Shown in pieces: positions 5,788-26,599 of a DNA stretch of 33,149 nucleotides (position 1 is its first letter; the number at the start of each line of letters is the position of its first letter). The notes under the pieces were generated by a model. The model had not been told where the DNA came from, searched no databases, and saw nothing but the letters and a program-made list of their open reading frames with translations. A program made the translations under genes and the position numbers. Location of the stretch: IMG/VR virus record IMGVR_UViG_2526164669_000028; one strand, 5' to 3'. Source of the stretch: a virus. Lineage: Duplodnaviria > Heunggongvirae > Uroviricota > Caudoviricetes.

Positions 5788-6195
5788 AACACTTTAAAAT
5801 TCAATGCAATGAAAGCATATCCATGTCTCATTGATATGCCTTTCAGTTATTATATATTTGTTTTATATGAAAAAATATCATATGCAGGGGGAGCAAATAC
5901 AACGGTTTACTTGTTATGATGCAAACATTGGTTAGTTAGTGAGATATATCGCCATCAATTGGGTATTTTTACCCGTGGAAAGTTAACGCTTTCTAACACT
6001 TACCCCGCGCAACGCCCCTGCCAGCGACAGGAGTCACAGGATCAGGAGGTATGGCGTATGGGTATTCGAACCCTTTGGGCGACCAAGGGTTCGTGGAGCA
6101 GGGGGCTAGTGCTGTTCAATCTCATCCTTATGAGGGCGAACCATAGTGTTGGAGCAGACATACCGTTTGCACACTATGGGCATAAGGAGCAAATC
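5788..6195 (+). ncRNA. Candidate structured non-coding leader (possible retron msr/msd RNA) upstream of the RT cassette
   Basis: About 400-nt AT-rich non-coding gap after A. Hairpins: GCATATC...GATATGC (5817-5840), GAACCCTT...AAGGGTTC (6067-6091), CCATAGTGT...ACACTATGG (6141-6178, 9-bp stem). Boundaries and function are not resolved by eye. Confidence 0.25.
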
Positions 6196-6351
6196 ATGAA
6201 GAATGATAAATTAACCAACGAACAGCAGGCGCAGAACAAGTCAAACCTGAAAAAGTGGGCTGGTTACGCTTGGAAATTAATCAAATGGGGTATTAGACTG
6301 TTTGATTTAGTTACTCGAGCACTGGACTACTTCGAAGGGGGTGATGAGTAA
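6196..6351 (+). CDS. Small hypothetical protein (51 aa), first ORF of the RT cassette
   Basis: ATG preceded by AAGGAG at 7 nt spacing; MKNDKLTNEQQAQNKSNLKKWAGYAWKLIKWGIRLFDLVTRALDYFEGGDE. The annotated 5959..6351 ORF is treated as a spurious 5' extension. Could instead be part of the ncRNA. Confidence 0.4.
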   Translation: MKNDKLTNEQQAQNKSNLKKWAGYAWKLIKWGIRLFDLVTRALDYFEGGDE

Positions 6352-6375
6352 TGCGTCCTCCCTAGTTTCAATAGC

Positions 6376-6696
6376 ATGGAGTTGCCTATGTTACATAAAG
6401 CCCTTCGTTTAATAAGGCAATACCATAAAGAATCAATAGTTGAGTTATCTTCATCTTTAGGTATTCCAAAAGACAAAATAGTATCGCTTGAAAGCGGAGT
6501 TTGGTCACCGTCGATTGAAGTCTTAGAGCGTTACGCCTCCCATTTCGACATACCAGTATCCTCTTTAGTATTCTTTTCGGAATCATTAGGCACGCAAGGC
6601 CGTTTGTCTAAGCGATTGCGTTTAAATTTAGCCGGTAAAGTTCTGGATGTTCTGGAGTGGGTAAGTAATAAAAATGAAAAAACGGAAAAAGCTTAA
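6376..6696 (+). CDS. XRE-family helix-turn-helix protein associated with the retron-type RT
   Basis: 106 aa; HTH signature (...IVELSSSLGIPKDKIVSLESGVWSPSIEVLERYASHF...); overlaps the RT start by 23 nt, suggesting co-translation. The start may be the second ATG at 6388. Confidence 0.7.
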   Translation: MELPMLHKALRLIRQYHKESIVELSSSLGIPKDKIVSLESGVWSPSIEVLERYASHFDIPVSSLVFFSESLGTQGRLSKRLRLNLAGKVLDVLEWVSNKNEKTEKA

Positions 6697-7624
6697 AGTT
6701 AATACTAAAAATAAATCTTATGACATAATGGATTCGCCATTTTATAAACTCAAAAGTAAAAGAAAACTGGCGAATTTGCTTTGTGTTAGTCTTGATGATT
6801 TATACTCTTTGAGAAAAGATGAAGGAAACTATTCCGTTTTTGAGCAGCTTTCTAAAAAAGGGAAAGCACGAAAAATACAAAAGCCTTTAGAAAAACTAGA
6901 ACTTGTACATACACGAATTGCAAGTTTGTTATCGCGGATTGCTTTGCCAGAATATCTGCACTCAGGGAAGAAGAAGTGCTCTAATGTGACGAATGCTAAA
7001 GCTCATCTTAATAATGAAAAGATGATGACAACAGATATTAAAGCTTTTTTTCCATCAACTACAAGAGGGATGATATTTTCTTTTTTCTTTTCGGTGATGA
7101 AAATGTCATCTGATGTTGCTGATGTTTTGTCCCACATATGTACTTGTCATGACCGATTGCCAACAGGTAGTCGAATCAGTATGCCGTTGGCATATTTTGC
7201 AAATTCAAGAATGTTTGGTGAAATATATCAACTTTGCCAAAAGTTACGAGTTAACATGACTGTTTATGTTGATGATCTCACTTTTTCAGGTAGTAACGTA
7301 AATCGATTGTTCTGCGCTGTAATTCGTAAGATCGTTAATAAGCATGGGCATGTTATACACCCAACGAAAACAAAACTATATGCCAGAGATAAGCCTAAGT
7401 TGGTAACTGGAGTTATTGTATTAGGCAATGCATTAAAAGTTAGGAATGAGCAGCATTTTTTGATGGCTAGGGAAATAGATTATTGGAAAATAATTAAAGA
7501 CGCCGAAAATGCGAGAGAAACAATCATTGCCAAAAAGCTCTTTGGTCGTTTGCATTCAATGGGAGTGATTGAGCAACGTTACAAATCTAAGGTGCTTACT
7601 TTAAAGGCTAATACTGCAAATTAA
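6674..7624 (+). CDS. Retron-type reverse transcriptase (316 aa)
   Basis: Contains NAKAH (NAxxH), DIKAFFPST, LPTGSRISMPLA (LPQG-like), YVDD catalytic motif and VTG triplet (KLVTGVIV); the order and spacing resemble recalled retron RT Ec86. AT-rich relative to the phage backbone. Confidence 0.85.
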   Translation: MKKRKKLKVNTKNKSYDIMDSPFYKLKSKRKLANLLCVSLDDLYSLRKDEGNYSVFEQLSKKGKARKIQKPLEKLELVHTRIASLLSRIALPEYLHSGKKKCSNVTNAKAHLNNEKMMTTDIKAFFPSTTRGMIFSFFFSVMKMSSDVADVLSHICTCHDRLPTGSRISMPLAYFANSRMFGEIYQLCQKLRVNMTVYVDDLTFSGSNVNRLFCAVIRKIVNKHGHVIHPTKTKLYARDKPKLVTGVIVLGNALKVRNEQHFLMAREIDYWKIIKDAENARETIIAKKLFGRLHSMGVIEQRYKSKVLTLKANTAN

Positions 7625-7670
7625 CATATTGAATGTATTGCATAATAGCATCAATAATGAAAATGACTTT

Positions 7671-7722
7671 GGCGTTAGTAACGCCGCCAGTGCAGGAATT
7701 TACTTTCGGTGCAGGCGGCGTT
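7671..7722. terminator. Hairpin cluster between the convergent RT and 145-aa genes (putative bidirectional terminator)
   Basis: AACGCCGCC (7680-7688) pairs with GGCGGCGTT (7714-7722), a 9-bp stem; nested GGCGTTAGTAACGCC element at 7671-7685. Confidence 0.35.
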
Positions 7723-7748
7723 GATTAGAAACCTCAGAAAGTAGTTAG

Positions 7749-8186
7749 CTATGAAGCTGACGTCACAAAATTAACACCAAGAGTCAACAGGTTTGTCACT
7801 GCTCCAGCAATGACACCTGGAGTCCCGTCTTTTACTGCACTGATAATTTTATCTCCCATCGTTTCATTACCGCCAAGTGCTTCGGGTTTTTTGTTGAGCA
7901 CCGCGAGTGCTTTCTCGGTCAGGCGCACATCATGAAAACCAGTCTGATGGTCTGTTCCGTACAGAATATAGCCGTTTTCGCTTAGGAAAGTGAATGTGCC
8001 ATCAACCACACTACGCAACTGATTCAGTGCTTTCATTTCTGGTGAGTTAAGTTGGTCAAAGTAGTCATCAGGTAACGCGGCGTTAAATTTTTTGTAGGTG
8101 ATGACTTGTGGTACAGGAAAGTTATCCCATAGCACCGCAAAGATTTCAGCCGTCTGCTGGTTAAATAATTCGAGGTTTTTGGACAT
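7749..8186 (-). CDS. Hypothetical protein (145 aa) with Gly/Ala-rich hydrophobic C-terminus; cargo gene convergent to the RT cassette
   Basis: Minus ORF with AAGGG RBS 7 nt upstream; C-terminal ...DGTPGVIAGAVTNLLTLGVNFVTSAS suggests a membrane-interacting tail; AT-rich. Confidence 0.6.
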   Translation of the reverse strand: MSKNLELFNQQTAEIFAVLWDNFPVPQVITYKKFNAALPDDYFDQLNSPEMKALNQLRSVVDGTFTFLSENGYILYGTDHQTGFHDVRLTEKALAVLNKKPEALGGNETMGDKIISAVKDGTPGVIAGAVTNLLTLGVNFVTSAS

Positions 8187-8379
8187 GCATAATTCCCTTT
8201 CATCAATTAAAGACCCTTATGCCGACTGGGCAAAGAGACTCACTGTAATGGCCTCAAATAACGACCTGAGTTCCCGCGAAGTGGAAAGCTACACCGAAAA
8301 AATGGTCGAGCAAGCCAGTAAAGATGAGCTTACGGTCGTTATCAAACACCTTTTAAACCACATCAGAATGAACAAATAA
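8185..8379 (+). CDS. Small hypothetical ORF (65 aa)
   Basis: Internal Met of ORF 8098..8379; GAGG about 9 nt upstream; its start overlaps the start codon of the divergent 145-aa gene, so it may not be real. Confidence 0.3.
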   Translation: MHNSLSSIKDPYADWAKRLTVMASNNDLSSREVESYTEKMVEQASKDELTVVIKHLLNHIRMNK

Positions 8380-8516
8380 AAGGATCTTTATCAATATGTT
8401 ATCTCTCGTTTATGAAAATCCGTGGACGACGGTTTTTTTGCTGATTGTAGCCACTTGTTGCCTTACCAGTATTATTGGCGCATTGCGCGACAAGTAACCA
8501 CAATGAAGCTGACTCA

Positions 8517-20573: not shown

Positions 20574-22703
20574 ATGAGCACAAAATTCAGAACCGTTATC
20601 ACCACTGCCGGTGCAGCAAAGCTGGCAGCGGCAACCGCACCGGGAGGGCGGAAGGTCAACATTACCACGATGGCCGTCGGGGATGGCGGTGGTAAATTGC
20701 CTGTCCCGGATGCCGGACAGACCGGGCTTATCCACGAAGTCTGGCGACATGCGCTGAACAAAATCAGCCAGGACAAACGAAACAGTAATTATATTATCGC
20801 AGAGCTGGTTATTCCGCCGGAGGTGGGCGGTTTCTGGATGCGTGAGCTTGGCCTGTACGATGATGCGGGAACGTTAATTGCCGTGGCGAACATGGCCGAA
20901 AGTTATAAGCCAGCTCTTGCCGAAGGCTCAGGGCGTTCGCAGACCTGCCGTATGGTCATCATCGTCAGCAGTGTGACCTCAGTGGAGCTGACCATTGACA
21001 CCACAACGGTGATGGCGACGCAGGATTACGTTGATGACAAAATTGCAGAACATGAACAGTCACGACGTCACCCGGACGCCTCGCTGACCGCAAAAGGTTT
21101 TACTCAGTTAAGCAGTGCGACCAACAGTACGTCTGAAACGCTCGCCGCAACGCCGAAAGCGGTAAAGGCCGCATATGACCTTGCTAACGGGAAATATACT
21201 GCGCAGGATGCCACTACGGCGCGAAAAGGCCTTGTTCAGCTCAGTAGTGCGACCAACAGCACGTCTGAAACGCTCGCCGCAACGCCGAAAGCGGTAAAGG
21301 CCGCATATGACCTTGCTAACGGGAAATACACTGCACAGGACGCCACCACCGCGCGAAAAGGCCTTGTTCAGCTCAGTAGCGCCACCAACAGCGATTCTGA
21401 AACGCTTGCGGCAACACCAAAGGCGGTTAAGACAGCGTATGACCTTGCTAACGGGAAATACACTGCACAGGATGCCACCACAGCGCGAAAAGGTCTTGTC
21501 CAGCTAAGTAGCGCCACCAACAGTGATTCTGAAACGCTTGCGGCCACGCCAAAGGCGGTAAAGGTCGCGTATGACCTTGCTAACGGGAAATACACTGCAC
21601 AGGATGCCACCACAGCGCGAAAAGGGCTTGTTCAGCTCAGTAGCGCCACCAACAGTGATTCGGAAACGCTGGCCGCAACACCAAAAGCGGTGAAGTCTGC
21701 CTATGACAATGCTGAAAAACGTCTTCAGAAAGATCAAAATGGCGCGGATATTCCTGATAAAAGATTATTCCTGCGCAATATTGGAGCAACAAATTCAACA
21801 ACCATGTCTTTTAGTGGTGGTACAGGATGGTTCAGGCTGGCAACTGTAACCATGCCACAGGCCAGTTCCGTGGTTTACATAAGTCTGATTGGTGGTGCCG
21901 GATATAATGTTAACTCCCCTATGCAGGCTGGTATATCTGAACTTGTTCTTCGTGCGGGAAATGGAAATCCAAAAGGTCTTACTGGTGCGTTATGGCGACG
22001 GACCTCGGTTGGATTTACTAATTTTGCATGGGTGAATACATCCGGTGATACCTATGATGTTTATGTTGAAATAGGTAATTACGCCACAGGTGTTAATATT
22101 CAGTGGGATTATACCAGTAACGCCAGCGTAACGATTCATACATCACCAACTTATACAGCGAATAAACCAACAGGCCTGACAGATGGAACTGTATATGTAA
22201 TTTACAGTTCGCACATTAAACCGACTGCTGCTGATGTTGGGGCGTTATCATTATCTGGAGGTCAATTGAATGGTGCACTGGGCATCGGTACATCCAGTGC
22301 TCTTGGCGGTAACTCGATTGTTTTGGGTGATAATGACACGGGCTTTAAACAAAATGGCGACGGTAATCTGGATGTTTATGCTAATAACGTCCATGTTATG
22401 CGCTTTGTCTCCGGTAGCATTCAAAGTAATAAAACCATAAATATTACGGGGCGTGTTAATCCCACAGATTACGGTAACTTTGATTCCCGCTATGTCCGGG
22501 ATATCCGGCTTGGTGGTGCTGCCACATACAAACCTGCGAACAATGGCATGACATGGACACATCAGGCACCGTCCGGGTGTGTATATTCTGGCATTATTGT
22601 TCAGGATACCGGCTCAAACTCTGCCGATAACATTGGTGGCGTATATTACAGACCGGTTCAGAAATACATTAACGGGACATGGTATAACGTGGCACAGGTA
22701 TAA
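20574..22703 (+). CDS. H: Tail fibre protein gpH with expanded internal repeats and a divergent C-terminal domain
   Basis: 709 aa; conserved N-terminus (MSTKFRTVITTAGAAKLAAATAPGG...), then five tandem 44-aa repeats, then a lower-GC C-terminal domain. Confidence 0.9.
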   Translation: MSTKFRTVITTAGAAKLAAATAPGGRKVNITTMAVGDGGGKLPVPDAGQTGLIHEVWRHALNKISQDKRNSNYIIAELVIPPEVGGFWMRELGLYDDAGTLIAVANMAESYKPALAEGSGRSQTCRMVIIVSSVTSVELTIDTTTVMATQDYVDDKIAEHEQSRRHPDASLTAKGFTQLSSATNSTSETLAATPKAVKAAYDLANGKYTAQDATTARKGLVQLSSATNSTSETLAATPKAVKAAYDLANGKYTAQDATTARKGLVQLSSATNSDSETLAATPKAVKTAYDLANGKYTAQDATTARKGLVQLSSATNSDSETLAATPKAVKVAYDLANGKYTAQDATTARKGLVQLSSATNSDSETLAATPKAVKSAYDNAEKRLQKDQNGADIPDKRLFLRNIGATNSTTMSFSGGTGWFRLATVTMPQASSVVYISLIGGAGYNVNSPMQAGISELVLRAGNGNPKGLTGALWRRTSVGFTNFAWVNTSGDTYDVYVEIGNYATGVNIQWDYTSNASVTIHTSPTYTANKPTGLTDGTVYVIYSSHIKPTAADVGALSLSGGQLNGALGIGTSSALGGNSIVLGDNDTGFKQNGDGNLDVYANNVHVMRFVSGSIQSNKTINITGRVNPTDYGNFDSRYVRDIRLGGAATYKPANNGMTWTHQAPSGCVYSGIIVQDTGSNSADNIGGVYYRPVQKYINGTWYNVAQV
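21093..21708 (+). repeat. Five tandem copies of a 132-bp (44-codon) in-frame repeat within H
   Basis: Unit KG(F/L)(T/V)QLSSATNS(T/D)SETLAATPKAVK(A/T/V/S)AYDLANGKYTAQDATTAR begins at 21093, 21225, 21357, 21489 and 21621; the last copy is partial. Confidence 0.85.
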
Positions 22704-22706
22704 TTT

Positions 22707-23234
22707 ATGCAGCATTTGATAAATATAACAGCGGGTAATCCAAAAACGGTTGAACAATATCAATTGACAAAGGGTTTTGATGTTGTCTGGTTTTTTTCAG
22801 AAGATGGTAAGAACTGGTACGAAGAACAAAAGTATTTTGCTGATGACACGATAAAAATAGCGTACGACAAAGATAATATTATCCGCTATGTGGAAAAGGA
22901 TGTGACAGCTATCAGACCAGATGGATTAAGTGTGGTTGAAGTGCCGGATATTACTGCTAACCGACGGGCGGACATTTCAGGGAACTGGATGTTTAAGGAC
23001 GGTACAGTGATTAAACGAATTTATACGGCAGAGGAATTGCAGCAGCAGGCAGAAAATCGGAAAGCCAGACTTCTTGCTGATGCTGAATCCGTGATTTTGC
23101 CGCTGGAACGCGCGGTCAGGCTGAACATGGCAACAGATGAGGAACGCACACGGCTGGAGGCTTGGGAACGCTACAGCGTTCTGGTCAGTCGTGTGGATCC
23201 TGCAAATCCTGAATGGCCGGAAATGCCGCAATAA
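22707..23234 (+). CDS. G: Tail fibre assembly chaperone gpG
   Basis: 175 aa immediately downstream of H; lower GC, like the H C-terminus. Confidence 0.85.
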
Positions 23235-23268
23235 GTTGTATAAGCTCTGGTGTGAGATTACATATCTA

Positions 23269-23310
23269 TGGCACAGAGTAAAGCCTAATCTGACAGTCCA
23301 CTCTGTGCCA
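23269..23310. repeat. Inverted repeat hairpin downstream of G
   Basis: TGGCACAGAGT (23269-23279) and ACTCTGTGCCA (23300-23310), 11-12 bp perfect arms with a 20-nt loop; no following T-run. Confidence 0.5.
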
Positions 23311-23427
23311 TTACCGGACATACTGAGCAGAAGGCTAAAAAGGACGCTTTCAGGACATATAGCAAGGGAGCAAGGATGAAAGAATTAACCCAGTATATTT
23401 AATGTTTCAATCATGATAGTTTCTGAA

Positions 23428-23454
23428 TTAAAGGGGGCTACCCACCCCCTTTAA
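23428..23454. terminator. Palindromic hairpin abutting the stop of the 92-aa minus-strand gene
   Basis: TTAAAGGGGG ... CCCCCTTTAA, 10-bp stem; ends one base before the minus-strand stop codon (23455-23457). Confidence 0.45.
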
Positions 23455-23733
23455 TTACTTGTTCCACTCAGTCAGAATTTGGTTACTAACTTCATCTGAG
23501 AGATTGTACCAATAAGCTGAGTTATTGGTTGCGTCTACAACAATAAGCTTATCATCACTATCCATGACCGCCCTCACAATTTTGGCTGCATCCTCGGCAG
23601 AGTAACTACAGTTAACATACCAGTTCGATTCAGTTGTTAAAGCCCAATTTCCTAAAGATTTAATTGCATCATACACAGCCGCATAATCTTTCGTTTTAAT
23701 GAGGTCGTAAGTAATAAATAAATTATTAGCCAT
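23455..23733 (-). CDS. Hypothetical protein (92 aa), cargo gene in the G-FI hotspot
   Basis: Minus ORF with GGAGA RBS 7 nt upstream; AT-rich; no recognisable motif. Confidence 0.55.
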   Translation of the reverse strand: MANNLFITYDLIKTKDYAAVYDAIKSLGNWALTTESNWYVNCSYSAEDAAKIVRAVMDSDDKLIVVDATNNSAYWYNLSDEVSNQILTEWNK

Positions 23734-23761
23734 AAATCATCTCCCAAAGGACAAAGAAAAA

Positions 23762-23779
23762 AGCGCCTAGAAAGGCGCT
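23762..23779 (-). terminator. Hairpin plus T-run between the two minus-strand cargo genes (possible attenuator or terminator)
   Basis: AGCGCCT agaa AGGCGCT, 7-bp stem; on the minus strand it is followed by TTTTTTCTTTGTCC and then the RBS of the 92-aa gene. Confidence 0.4.
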
Positions 23780-23785
23780 CATATA

Positions 23786-23965
23786 TTAATGGTCTTTAAG
23801 CCATGCCTGTACTTTCTTAGCCGAATGACCTACAGCCTGTACGGCTTGAACAAGTTTGGCCTCGCTAACTCCAAACTTTTCAGCCCAATCACGTCTCTCG
23901 TAATCCTGTTTGATACTTATTAAATCATTGTCAGGTGTACCGATTTTGGTCTTATCATCAGCCAT
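23786..23965 (-). CDS. Small protein (60 aa), possibly DUF3606-like
   Basis: Internal start MADDKTKIGTPDNDLISIKQDYERRDWAEKFGVSEAKLVQAVQAVGHSAKKVQAWLKDH with GAGGA RBS 9 nt upstream; the motif (...Y.RDWA.KFGVS...L..AV..VG.SA.KV...L) resembles my recollection of DUF3606; not verified. Confidence 0.5.
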   Translation of the reverse strand: MADDKTKIGTPDNDLISIKQDYERRDWAEKFGVSEAKLVQAVQAVGHSAKKVQAWLKDH

Positions 23966-24456
23966 TTTACTGATTCCTCGTGATACAGGCTTATACCTGC
24001 CCATTAGTTATATGGCTCCCGTGCTGCTTCGTAAACGTTCAATAATCAAACAATTGACACTGATCATAAAACCAGTTAGAGGATTTGACTCTAGCTTGGA
24101 TATATGATGATGCCACCCCTTTTATATTGTTGTCGGTAACTCACAGACATTGAACTCATGCTGGTGAGTGAAAGGCTACATAAACGTCCAACATTTAAAC
24201 TGCCATCAGCAGCGTTCGCGGAGCAATATACAGGCTTCGTATTCAATCCTTGCCCTACGAGAAACCCTAGCCGTTGCCTCGTTTTCAAGTGTCAGGAAGT
24301 TCTTTGTCAGACCTCATACAGTCTTGGGTTGGGTGAGGTGCATGGGGGAAGTTGAAGCCTTAACTGTTGAGGTAAATCGAACCATAAGTGTGCAATTTTT
24401 CAAGCCCGGCGCTATTTTAGTATTGAAAACAATTCGTACGCCCCCAAGGACAACTC

Positions 24457-25077
24457 ATGATCGAATTTATCGCAGAGCATATAAACACAGTAAGTACACT
24501 TATCTCCGCTTTGGCAGCATTGCTAACAGCAGTTGCTACATTTTTCTTGTGGAGAGTAACAAGGCTATTAGCAGACGAGACAAAAAGGATGGTTGACGCA
24601 TCAGTTCAACCTCATGTCGTTGTGACTCTTGAACCAAATTCTTGGGCTGCTTTTTATTTTGATATCAATATTGCTAATACCGGAAATGCCCCAGCCTATG
24701 ATATTGAAGTCGGATTTAATCCCCCACTGGTTAATGCAGAACATAGAAAAAATAAAGGTATACCATTTAGCAAGGTTAGCGTATTGAAAAACGGCCATTC
24801 CCTCAACAGCAGTCTTTGTAAGTATGACCAGATTAAAGATCAAGTTTATTCTGTTAGTATTAGCTGGTCTAAACAGCCGGGCTCAACTGAAAGAGAGCGG
24901 AATGAGTATTCTTATGATATGGCTTCTTTCGAGGGGGTTAGCTACTTAGGTGCAAGGAGTCCAATGACACAGATAGCTGAGCAGATGAAAAAGATTAGAG
25001 AAGACTGGAGGCCGATTTCCCAGGGAAGCAAAAAAATTAAAACAGACAACTATAATTCAAGTGGCAGAGCAGAGTAA
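24457..25077 (+). CDS. Hypothetical membrane-anchored protein (206 aa), cargo gene in the G-FI hotspot
   Basis: AAGGA RBS 8 nt upstream; N-terminal hydrophobic helix (TVSTLISALAALLTAVATFFLW); AT-rich; no recognisable catalytic motif. Confidence 0.6.
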   Translation: MIEFIAEHINTVSTLISALAALLTAVATFFLWRVTRLLADETKRMVDASVQPHVVVTLEPNSWAAFYFDINIANTGNAPAYDIEVGFNPPLVNAEHRKNKGIPFSKVSVLKNGHSLNSSLCKYDQIKDQVYSVSISWSKQPGSTERERNEYSYDMASFEGVSYLGARSPMTQIAEQMKKIREDWRPISQGSKKIKTDNYNSSGRAE

Positions 25078-25284
25078 CAACGAGCACGTGAAGAGTGGTA
25101 TCAGACCACTGTAAAGAAATGGGATAAAGAAAGGCAAAAAGATAACTAATACAATTAACCTACTCCCCATAAATTAGCATACCACAATCTCAGGTTCCTC
25201 TTCGCTCAAAACAGGCTGTCAGATTTGATAGCGTTTTGGCTATGTAAATTGTCAGTCGGAAAATGAGTGAGTACAAATCAGGAC

Positions 25285-25312
25285 AGGCGGGCGAATTGCC
25301 CGCCTTTTCTTT
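25285..25312 (+). terminator. Rho-independent terminator upstream of the FI late operon
   Basis: AGGCGGGC gaatt GCCCGCCT, 8-bp stem followed by TTTTCTTT. Confidence 0.6.
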
Positions 25313-25408
25313 ATCTGTTGTTTCATCCACTGACCAGCCAGGTCAAATAGCGTCTCATGCACTGCCCAACAGAAAATAGTTGCACCCATTAACCACGGAG
25401 TTAAACGG

Positions 25409-26599
25409 ATGAGTGACTATCATCATGGCGTGCAGGTGCTGGAGATTAACGACGGCACCCGCGTCATTTCCACCGTATCCACTGCCGTTGTCGGCATGGT
25501 CTGTACGGCCAGCGATGCGGATGCGGAAACCTTCCCCCTCAATAAACCTGTGCTGATTACCAATGTGCAGAGCGCAATTGCAAAGGCCGGTAAAAAAGGC
25601 ACGCTGGCGGCATCGTTGCAGGCCATCGCCGACCAGTCAAAACCGGTCACCGTTGTCGTGCGTGTGGAAGACGGCACCGGCGACGACGAGGAAACGAAAC
25701 TCGCGCAGACCGTTTCCAATATCATCGGCACCACCGACGAAAATGGTCAGTACACCGGACTGAAAGCCCTGCTGGCGGCGGAGTCGGTAACCGGCGTTAA
25801 ACCGCGTATTCTCGGTGTGCCGGGACTGGACACCAAAGAGGTGGCTGTTGCACTGGCATCAGTCTGTCAGAAGCTGCGCGCTTTCGGATATATCAGCGCA
25901 TGGGGCTGTAAGACCATTTCCGAGGTGAAAGCCTACCGCCAGAATTTCAGCCAGCGTGAACTGATGGTTATCTGGCCGGATTTCCTCGCATGGGATACGG
26001 TCACCAGTACCACCGCCACCGCGTATGCCACCGCCCGTGCGCTGGGTCTGCGTGCCAAAATCGACCAGGAGCAGGGCTGGCATAAAACGCTGTCCAACGT
26101 TGGGGTAAACGGTGTTACCGGCATCAGCGCATCTGTATTCTGGGATTTGCAGGAGTCCGGCACCGATGCTGACCTGCTTAACGAGTCAGGCGTCACTACG
26201 CTGATTCGCCGCGACGGTTTCCGATTCTGGGGTAACCGTACCTGCTCTGATGACCCGCTGTTCCTCTTTGAAAACTACACCCGCACCGCGCAGGTGCTGG
26301 CCGACACGATGGCTGAGGCGCACATGTGGGCGGTGGACAAGCCCATCACCGCAACGCTGATTCGCGACATCGTTGACGGCATCAATGCCAAATTCCGTGA
26401 GCTGAAAACAAACGGCTATATCGTGGATGCGACCTGCTGGTTCAGCGAAGAATCCAACGATGCGGAAACCCTCAAGGCCGGAAAACTGTATATCGACTAC
26501 GACTATACACCGGTGCCTCCTCTTGAAAACCTGACCCTGCGCCAGCGTATTACCGATAAATACCTGGCAAATCTGGTCACTTCGGTTAACAGCAATTAA
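25409..26599 (+). CDS. FI: Tail sheath protein gpFI
   Basis: 396 aa, MSDYHHGVQVLEINDGTRVISTVSTA...; matches recalled P2 FI. Confidence 0.92.
   Translation: MSDYHHGVQVLEINDGTRVISTVSTAVVGMVCTASDADAETFPLNKPVLITNVQSAIAKAGKKGTLAASLQAIADQSKPVTVVVRVEDGTGDDEETKLAQTVSNIIGTTDENGQYTGLKALLAAESVTGVKPRILGVPGLDTKEVAVALASVCQKLRAFGYISAWGCKTISEVKAYRQNFSQRELMVIWPDFLAWDTVTSTTATAYATARALGLRAKIDQEQGWHKTLSNVGVNGVTGISASVFWDLQESGTDADLLNESGVTTLIRRDGFRFWGNRTCSDDPLFLFENYTRTAQVLADTMAEAHMWAVDKPITATLIRDIVDGINAKFRELKTNGYIVDATCWFSEESNDAETLKAGKLYIDYDYTPVPPLENLTLRQRITDKYLANLVTSVNSN

Follow-up and report, generated by a model that had tools for sequence, protein, structure and literature searches.

Several lines of evidence assign a small gene in the cargo interval of a P2-like prophage to the Cas2/VapD superfamily, of which its product is a divergent stand-alone member. 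The prophage fills a 33,149-nt stretch of DNA (IMG/VR virus record IMGVR_UViG_2526164669_000028; hereafter the window). The gene, which codes for 92 amino acids (aa), lies next to a gene of the DUF3606 family on the minus strand, between the tail-fiber assembly gene G and the sheath gene FI. A terminator-like hairpin separates the two genes and is conserved in front of homologs of the 92-aa protein in Enterobacterales. The reading to which we lean, while judging it to fall somewhat short of probable, is that the two genes form an accessory operon expressed in the lysogen. In this operon, a solo Cas2/VapD-like effector would be held at low dose by the intercistronic terminator and would most likely act on nucleic acid in conflicts involving phages or mobile elements.

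The 92-aa protein and its family

Sequence profiles, homologs and a structural model all pointed to the same superfamily. The PADLOC Cas2_II profile aligned with the 92-aa protein over its full length (E 0.019). Homologs from Staphylococcus phages, 34% identical to it (BLASTP E 6e-12), scored 29.4 and 35.9 bits on Pfam Cas2 (PF09827; cut-off 23.8) in the same alignment register, and this profile matched 17 of 93 diverse family members, at best with an E value of 8.6e-7. An AlphaFold model computed with 39 homologs was confident (predicted local distance difference test, pLDDT, 95.5) and ferredoxin-like, and the top 13 Foldseek matches in the PDB were all Cas2 proteins or the Cas2-like nuclease BPSL1038. 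Identity to the Cas2 chains was 12-17%. PDB sequence searches with the 92-aa protein, both family profiles and a Staphylococcus phage homolog found nothing significant, and the sole relevant match was BPSL1038 (E 0.26); neither of the two cassette proteins matched NCBIfam. A first-pass annotation of the window, made from the sequence alone, had not recognized a family for the 92-aa protein. Profile and structure searches now place it in the Cas2/VapD superfamily, which gives the idea of a toxin or nuclease a concrete footing, whereas the structure search for the DUF3606 protein was uninformative.

The 92-aa protein shares with Cas2 (PF09827) a size of about 90 aa, the ferredoxin-like core, an Asp ending strand 1, a Ser where beta2 turns into beta3, and a further Asp that precedes strand 4. 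Among the 93 family members, position 10 was Asp or Glu in 80 and position 36 was Ser or Thr in 81, and Asp61 was present in every one; Trp90 was near-invariant. An ES-x-WY segment aligned with the active-site motif SST-AWY of BPSL1038. Judging from fold topology rather than from measured coordinates, residues 10, 36 and 61 should share one edge of the sheet. Differences from Cas2 were also evident: the protein is acidic, scores below the profile threshold, carries beyond the Cas2 core an extra C-terminal strand and a helix that contains the near-invariant Trp90, and travels as prophage cargo. No cas1, other cas gene, or CRISPR array or repeat was found in the window (Rfam CRISPR repeat families included), so it is not a CRISPR adaptation gene. 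Compared with close relatives, it was under purifying selection, with a ratio of nonsynonymous to synonymous substitution rates (dN/dS) of 0.10-0.32.

Tandem duplicates made up 6 of the top 150 relatives, consistent with a dimeric working form. Among the relatives P0153, P0163, P0165, P0185, P0234, P0250 and P0134, the tandem duplicates had no Asp10 in either copy and retained Ser36 and Asp61. Beyond tandem duplicates and one 1507-aa protein, in which two copies were combined with a Baseplate_J domain and a carbohydrate-binding module, no informative domain fusions were found.

BPSL1038 of Burkholderia pseudomallei (PDB 7VXR) has been assigned to a 'Cas2/VapD nuclease sub-family' and is a double-stranded DNA endonuclease in vitro (PMC10491678). 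Its profile match to the phage family was marginal, however, and the residue equivalent to the invariant Asp61 is Thr in BPSL1038. The paper on BPSL1038 mentions no prophage, genomic island or operon (PMC10491678), and an endonuclease activity of the phage family is suggested by analogy. The VapD, VapXD, VapYD and VapWD systems (PMC11980593) share several features with the family. They, too, consist of small Cas2-like proteins, solo or paired, on mobile elements, with Asp and Ser at catalytic positions; a small gene lies immediately upstream, partners are non-homologous between clades, and tandem or fused duplicates occur in the wider family. In contrast to these systems, the partners found here (DUF3606, a 40-aa peptide or DUF2188) were none of VapX, VapY and VapW, and a terminator hairpin lies between the genes. 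Neither a VapX or VapY (SH3 barrel) nor a VapW (inactive VapD) antitoxin gene was adjacent to the 92-aa gene.

An exhaustive profile search recovered 2466 cluster representatives of the family (50% identity clusters), and its temperate-phage hosts included Staphylococcus, Enterococcus, Clostridium, Mannheimia and Escherichia. In Enterobacterales, the gene was found in the P2 Z/fun slot and also at integrase-adjacent ends of other prophages or islands; in the lambdoid prophage of one E. coli strain, it was antisense in the early region. In the Enterococcus phiFL phages and in phages of Staphylococcus pseudintermedius, S. epidermidis and Mannheimia, it was a lone gene placed antisense amid early lytic genes. 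It was co-oriented with the repressor in phiFL and Staphylococcus phages, and it adjoined cro and antirepressor genes in Gram-positive phages. Hexamers resembling a -10 element (TATAAT or TATACT) were present just upstream of the Enterococcus, Staphylococcus and Mannheimia copies, and most non-enterobacterial Cas2-like genes had no small upstream gene. These positions are the classical places of accessory genes expressed in lysogens.

The cassette, its hairpin and its exchangeable partners

The window is a complete P2-like prophage, with the integrase at 1-1011, the repressor side, a replication gene, portal and terminase genes, and head and tail genes. The module lies between G (22707-23234; Caudo_TAP E 1.4e-34) and FI (25409-26599), a slot known as the Z/fun hotspot, whose accessory genes serve mixed purposes, and its strand is opposite to that of the late genes. 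GC content was 0.36-0.42 across the module versus 0.52-0.59 in the flanking tail genes. This drop and the position between G and FI uphold the initial view of an AT-rich cargo in this hotspot, and both genes are clearly accessory, not conserved core proteins of P2-like phages. Phage R18C and the GenBank entry 'P2-EC53 proviral Z-region' carried the entire 2.2-kb intergenic cargo with 98-99% identity, and other P2-like phages matched its two flanks only. Like other Z/fun cargo (morons) of P2, the module combines the G-FI slot with low GC content, antisense orientation to the late genes, and an apparent promoter and terminator of its own. It differs in that its content is unrelated to the Z/fun gene, by which T5 is excluded, and that the same cassette also occurs in integrase-adjacent and lambdoid early-region slots.

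As initially described, two minus-strand open reading frames (ORFs) are present, at 23455-23733 (92 aa) and 23786-24004 (72 aa as the longest ORF). The latter had been reported as a 60-aa, possibly DUF3606-like protein. Its family is now well supported (Pfam PF12244 E 4.3e-18, 65 bits versus a cut-off of 24.3; phrog_10779 E 8e-39), but its length is most likely 59 aa. We placed the start at ATG 23965, and not at 24004, because a ribosome-binding site (RBS), GAGGAA, precedes ATG 23965, because PGAP calls a 180-nt gene in other genomes, and because related cassettes lack ATG 24004, which is located 3 nt past the putative -10 hexamer. In its AlphaFold 2 model (pLDDT 76.7), the DUF3606 protein formed a bundle of three helices, and the N-terminus was disordered. 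The model had no significant match in the PDB, with UBA-like three-helix bundles at E > 1, and a role as DNA-binding antitoxin was left unsupported by this uninformative structure search. The gene had a dN/dS of 0.03-0.12.

Homology to two loci in other contexts, an integrase-adjacent island of another E. coli strain (L003) and a viral contig (L077), extended from approximately 24080, which is about 115 nt upstream of the DUF3606 ATG, to the stop codon of the Cas2-like gene at 23455. Because this homology is bounded by the same ends in different contexts, the promoter region, the DUF3606 gene, the hairpin and the Cas2-like gene constitute a transferable cassette (Table 1), and the two-gene module stands as a transferable unit. 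Conservation is the sole basis for the proposed promoter at about 24035-24007: the candidate sits in the upstream block of about 115 nt that is conserved between P2-hotspot cassettes and the integrase-adjacent L003 and L077, where the -10 hexamer is TATAAG. At the other end, the closing hairpin had a predicted dG of -19.8 (z -3.75), and the same element was called by the terminator scan.

Table 1. Positions of the cassette elements and of the adjoining cargo gene in the window
Feature	Position	Strand	Remarks
Stand-alone Cas2/VapD-superfamily gene, 92 aa	23455..23733	-	phrog_1090 (function annotated as unknown)
DUF3606 gene, 59 aa	23786..23965	-	RBS GAGGAA at 23979-23974; mechanical ORF reaches 24004
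Hairpin with U-tract, intrinsic-terminator-like	23753..23780	-	Stem-loop 23780-23761; U-tract 23760-23753
Possible long-range helix	23743..23800	-	CUUAAAG at 23800-23794 (last DUF3606 codons) pairs with CUUUGGG at 23749-23743
Closing bidirectional terminator-like hairpin	23426..23457		AATTAAAGGGGG-N7-CCCCCTTTAATT; 12-bp perfect inverted repeat
Putative sigma-70 promoter of the cassette	24007..24035	-	-35 TTTACG at 24035-24030; 17-nt spacer; -10 TATAAC at 24012-24007
Upstream edge of the transferable cassette	24058..24080	-	Inverted repeat ACTGGT-N6-A(T/C)CAGT; homology to L003 and L077 begins
Membrane-anchored protein gene, phrog_11802	24457..25077	+	'ORF1, putative lysogenic conversion protein' of P2-EC53; divergent from the cassette

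The two genes of the cassette differed in divergence from L003 and L077. For DUF3606, the synonymous substitution rate (dS) was 0.36-0.52 and dN/dS was 0.03-0.04, whereas for the Cas2-like gene dS was saturated, with 71-76% amino-acid identity and purifying selection. This contrast implies a recombination breakpoint that separates the genes and is located at the hairpin or close to it. The drop in identity to 71-76% prompted us to consider diversifying selection on the Cas2-like gene; this was rejected, as its saturated dS next to the DUF3606 values reflects allele replacement by recombination and not rapid evolution.

The hairpin and T-run first noticed between the genes were confirmed. On the minus strand the element reads GAGCGCCU-UUCU-AGGCGCUU, with 8 pairs (5 of them G-C by the count of the scan), a 4-nt loop, a predicted dG of -13.3 kcal/mol and T in 7 of the next 8 bases. 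The DUF3606 stop codon is separated from it by 5 nt, and a further 27 nt lie between its end and the start codon (ATG) of the 92-aa gene. Being a GC-rich stem-loop followed by a U-tract, it has the makeup of an intrinsic terminator, and termination is predicted at this site. The motif AGCGCC-N4-6-GGCGCT occurred once in the window (0 expected from 100 shuffles), and in 113 fetched loci it was found only 29-49 nt upstream of the ATG of the homologous gene. The hairpin was kept in all 13 distinct Enterobacterales cassettes, whichever gene lay upstream, with 4-13 nt from the upstream stop to the stem and 25-31 nt from the stem to the ATG. Across these cassettes, the GCGCC/GGCGC stem was near-invariant and the loops varied; in one of them (L076) pairing was preserved via two G-U changes. 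The U-tract was strong in DUF3606-type cassettes (6-7 T in 8). Searches of Rfam gave nothing at the gathering threshold and chance-level matches only at the E-value threshold.

An attenuator-like gate had been proposed for this hairpin. Its conservation, and a placement in which the 92-aa gene could be transcribed only through it, agree with a gate, but an attenuator in the strict sense was unsupported, as folding of the leader revealed no competing antiterminator. The folds instead contained the terminator together with an enclosing 7-bp helix over the Shine-Dalgarno sequence, whose CUUUGGG arm overlaps GGGAGA (23745-23740). This long-range helix was present in the minimum-free-energy folds of the window, L016, L003 and L077, in which the arms are sequence-identical and show no covariation. 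The unpaired probability of the Shine-Dalgarno sequence was 0.36, and cassettes with the 40-aa peptide had a 4-bp analog only. These folds weakly suggest that the helix would link termination of the first gene with translation of the second.

In Enterobacterales the upstream partner was DUF3606, a 40-aa basic peptide or DUF2188. The same stem and spacing and an invariant GGAGA RBS follow all three of these unrelated genes, which indicates that the hairpin belongs to the leader of the Cas2-like gene and not to DUF3606. The commonest partner was the peptide, which is 40-42 aa long and very basic (isoelectric point, pI, about 10.3) and is encoded about 180-56 nt upstream of the Cas2-like ATG (loci L006-L011, L017-L020, L076 and L078; for example, MAKIGRDAKTGQFIPVSEAKKHPNTTVVETIKTPAKKGKK). 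It has the consensus ..TGQF(I/V)..(E/K)A..(H/N/R)P.TTV.ET(I/V)K and matched no Pfam or PHROG family. DUF3606 homologs with 56-77% identity exist without a Cas2-like neighbor, among them a Yersinia ruckeri gene that has its own terminator and nothing after it. Conversely, Cas2-like homologs occur alone with their own putative promoters, or behind unrelated small genes. The suggestion of a toxin-antitoxin-like pair was therefore not sustained with respect to obligate pairing, as each gene is often found without the other. Consistent linkage of the two genes, as in type II toxin-antitoxin systems, was absent, and the presence of some small upstream gene was consistent in Enterobacterales only (13 of 13 cassettes). 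The Cas2-like gene and its hairpin leader appear, then, to be the conserved core, to which an exchangeable small gene is added upstream.

Possible roles of the cassette

We propose that the cassette is a self-contained, horizontally mobile moron operon of the P2-like prophage. Its transcription is antisense to the late tail genes, and thus it is presumably expressed in the lysogen. Read along the minus strand, the operon would consist of the promoter region, DUF3606, the hairpin with its U-tract, the Cas2-like gene and the bidirectional terminator. Since the space after the hairpin is too short for a promoter and no acceptable one spans it, the Cas2-like protein would be made only from read-through. 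With a partial terminator, a minority of transcripts would reach the second gene, giving a fixed ratio of much DUF3606 protein to little Cas2-like protein. A stop codon near a terminator lowers termination. The upstream stop is no farther from the hairpin's 5′ arm than the footprint of a ribosome, so termination may depend on translation of the first gene, and a ribosome finishing DUF3606 on this arm may aid read-through. The effector would be a small ferredoxin-fold protein, probably dimeric, whose acidic Asp10/Ser36/Asp61 cluster coincides in position with the nuclease site of Cas2, VapD and BPSL1038, and it would most likely serve the lysogen as a nucleic-acid-targeting defense or exclusion factor. 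DUF3606 would provide transcription as an exchangeable upstream gene, perhaps with a modulating influence on the effector but not as an obligate partner. We lean towards defense because of context: occupied slots are reportedly enriched for defense genes (PMC9122126; bioRxiv 10.64898/2026.02.27.708500), the cassette alternates with a membrane protein in one slot, and AbiJ was found beside this membrane protein.

Several observations weigh against this proposal. A scan for sigma-70 consensus promoters was negative across the hotspot; it missed the candidate because the last base of its -10 hexamer is not T. In two cassette types the U-tract is weak (3-4 T in 8), so that termination strength is not uniformly conserved. 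Covariation in the hairpin was nearly nil, as the stem is almost invariant; an RNA structure and a protein-binding palindrome are indistinguishable in such a stem. The 92-aa protein itself aligned with PF09827 over its full length at an E value of 0.15 and 12.7 bits, below the 23.8 cut-off. Its pI of 4.3, versus a family median of about 6, is unusual for a nucleic-acid enzyme, and Asp10 is lost in tandem-duplicated relatives. In addition, the cassette had been viewed as a small defense or anti-defense module, yet it could not be attributed to a known defense system, as PADLOC-DB v2 contained no convincing defense model for either protein (marginal matches to Cas2_II and to PDC-M03B, the latter with E 0.027).

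The arrangement of a small gene first and a nuclease-like gene second would also suit a type II toxin-antitoxin system of the VapD kind, in which DUF3606, the 40-aa peptide or DUF2188 would be the cognate antitoxin of a toxic nuclease and the hairpin would ensure antitoxin excess. The superfamily includes proven toxins with conserved Asp and Ser, VapD toxins pair with the unrelated antitoxins VapX, VapY and VapW, and about half are partnerless (PMC11980593); a small upstream gene in every distinct Enterobacterales cassette, the swapping of partners and the location in a mobile-element hotspot would fit as well. However, DUF3606 homologs without a Cas2-like gene, one of them closed by its own terminator, and the solo Cas2-like genes of Gram-positive and Mannheimia phages and of most non-enterobacterial loci argue against such a system. 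The genes do not overlap and have a terminator between them, which is atypical for type II, and the three-helix bundle of DUF3606 is neither the SH3 barrel of VapX and VapY nor a VapW-like VapD homolog. VapD structures were also absent among the PDB matches listed, and overproduction of the related BPSL1038 was feasible in E. coli (PMC10491678). We regard a toxin-antitoxin system as doubtful on this balance. It is unlikely, too, that the 92-aa protein is a non-enzymatic ferredoxin-fold regulator or binder (ACT-like or GhoS-like) that acts in the biology of the prophage itself, for example in the choice between lysis and lysogeny or in the control of mRNA, with the hairpin as its own or its partner's binding site. 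The acidity of the protein, the fact that Asp10 is not universal, the cro and antirepressor neighbors in Gram-positive phages, and the palindromic GCGCC/GGCGC stem that is invariant and does not covary are compatible with this idea. On the other hand, the sequence profiles single out Cas2/VapD, conservation at the nuclease site extends to the Asp/Ser/Asp cluster, and interchangeable slots in P2-like, lambdoid and integrase-adjacent contexts argue against a role in a single circuit.

In a further reading, the hairpin does not gate the second gene. It could be the terminator of DUF3606, with the Cas2-like gene essentially silent; or a promoter over the DUF3606 stop codon (TAATAT, 23790-23785) could initiate transcription at the hairpin, making it a 5′ stabilizing stem-loop. 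In Y. ruckeri, the DUF3606 terminator has nothing downstream. A T(A/G)ATA(T/C) hexamer over the upstream stop codon, 5-9 nt before the stem, does recur in several cassette types. Yet no acceptable -35 was present at 16-18 nt and the scan found no promoter there, a silent gene would lack purifying selection and an invariant GGAGA RBS, and the identical stem, spacing and RBS after three unrelated genes are not expected of a mere DUF3606 terminator. A hairpin that does not gate expression is accordingly improbable in our judgment. Another possibility is an anti-defense decoy, a solo Cas2-like protein that binds host Cas1 or heterodimerizes with host Cas2 and thereby blocks spacer acquisition, so that the prophage and other incoming DNA would escape CRISPR adaptation. 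A Cas2 homolog encoded without cas1, array or CRISPR repeats in the window, recurring in temperate phages of Staphylococcus, Enterococcus, Clostridium, Mannheimia and Escherichia, would suit this purpose; many strains of these genera carry CRISPR-Cas. The protein is also small and acidic, like many anti-defense proteins, and Cas2 is a known target of the anti-CRISPR AcrVA5 (PMC11021501). Nevertheless, a decoy would have no need of the conserved active-site-like residues, the relation to any host Cas2 type is distant (the 12-17% identity to PDB chains), and the closest characterized relative, BPSL1038, comes from a species reported to be without CRISPR (PMC10491678), which makes a decoy very unlikely. 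The least likely proposition is its extension to a large overlooked family of phage-borne solo Cas2 homologs that would be expressed from prophages and poison the host Cas1-Cas2 integrase, an anti-CRISPR strategy at the adaptation step that would work by subunit mimicry and protect the prophage and its relatives.

Literature searches revealed nothing on the function of phage-encoded solo Cas2-like proteins or on their role as prophage cargo. New findings are the assignment to Cas2/VapD, the large size of the family and its distribution among phages, the conservation of the hairpin leader, the swapping of partners and the recombination junction. So far, solo Cas2/VapD-like proteins have been known as toxins (VapD) or orphan nucleases (BPSL1038). 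The present family fills slots of temperate phages in which defense and lysogenic-conversion genes gather, in both Gram-negative and Gram-positive hosts. Whether it acts as a defense nuclease, as a toxin whose small-protein partners can be exchanged or as a mimic of Cas2, it would, if one of these proposals is true, be a widespread single-protein player in phage-host conflict, and it would bear on the long-standing idea that Cas2 originated from toxin-like genes of mobile elements. The cassette may also offer a compact natural case in which an intercistronic terminator controls gene dosage and at the same time acts as a recombination junction where modules are swapped.

Carriage of the cargo and other features of the prophage

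DNA of the two-gene interval was detected in 102 of 5426 complete E. coli genomes, with one copy in each, all chromosomal. The paper on R18C reported both ORFs at the fun(Z) position with unknown function, one of them annotated as DUF3606, and PSI-BLAST added nothing (PMC6823313). In the P2-EC53 record, the neighboring ORF1 alone is annotated and both small genes were missed. Relative to every other copy, this record (AJ512682, 2003; L001) shows small indels that affect both the hairpin and DUF3606 and are probably sequencing errors.

In the window, the phrog_11802 gene is cut to 206 aa by TAA at 25075-25077, where other copies have GAA and encode 230 aa. This family is widespread, including in Xanthomonas, Rhizobium and sphingomonads, and also adjoins integrases; the member next to AbiJ is located in a P4-like element. 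The gene travels with the cassette in a block of about 1.9 kb (~23265-25200), which contains the left hairpin, the Cas2-like gene, DUF3606, a 450-nt spacer and the membrane-protein gene, but it is not a consistent partner. The block was approximately 97% identical to one located antisense in the early region of the lambdoid prophage mentioned above (L105; E. coli QML220601, NZ_CP132063), after the cro, ydaT, DUF1627 and DUF977 genes. On this sequence identity, it is a case of recent cargo transfer between unrelated phage types. A three-gene system that includes the membrane protein was considered and rejected, since the cassette is found alone in L003 and L077 and the membrane protein elsewhere without the cassette. 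Comparison of two further loci (L006 and L106) showed that in related prophages an integrase-proximal slot after an 88-91-aa 'HRY...GRHKCCGCAY' gene holds either a peptide/Cas2-like cassette or a phrog_11802 protein, which suggests a further cargo hotspot.

Two additional repeats were observed near the edges of the cargo. At the left edge of the shared block, 23268-23311 is a perfect 12-bp inverted repeat, ATGGCACAGAGT-N20-ACTCTGTGCCAT, which falls inside the 'left inverted repeat' annotated in AJ512682 and may terminate the late operon, whose last gene is G, or serve as a landmark of recombination. A strong terminator-like hairpin with a T-run, AGGCGGGC-GAATT-GCCCGCCT, is located at 25285-25305, some 100 nt upstream of FI. 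A sub-threshold Rfam match to STnc150, an Hfq-binding small RNA (25107-25315; 22.9 bits versus 60, E 0.037), overlaps this hairpin and is probably due to chance.

Elsewhere in the window, a 132-bp (44-aa) unit is repeated 4.5 times in tandem, with 89% matching, within the tail-fiber gene H (21120-21707). The other classical P2 hotspot, at the old/tin position between gene A and the portal gene (~5800-9100), holds several ORFs at 5959-6351, 6376-6696, 6674-7624 and, on the minus strand, 7749-8186.

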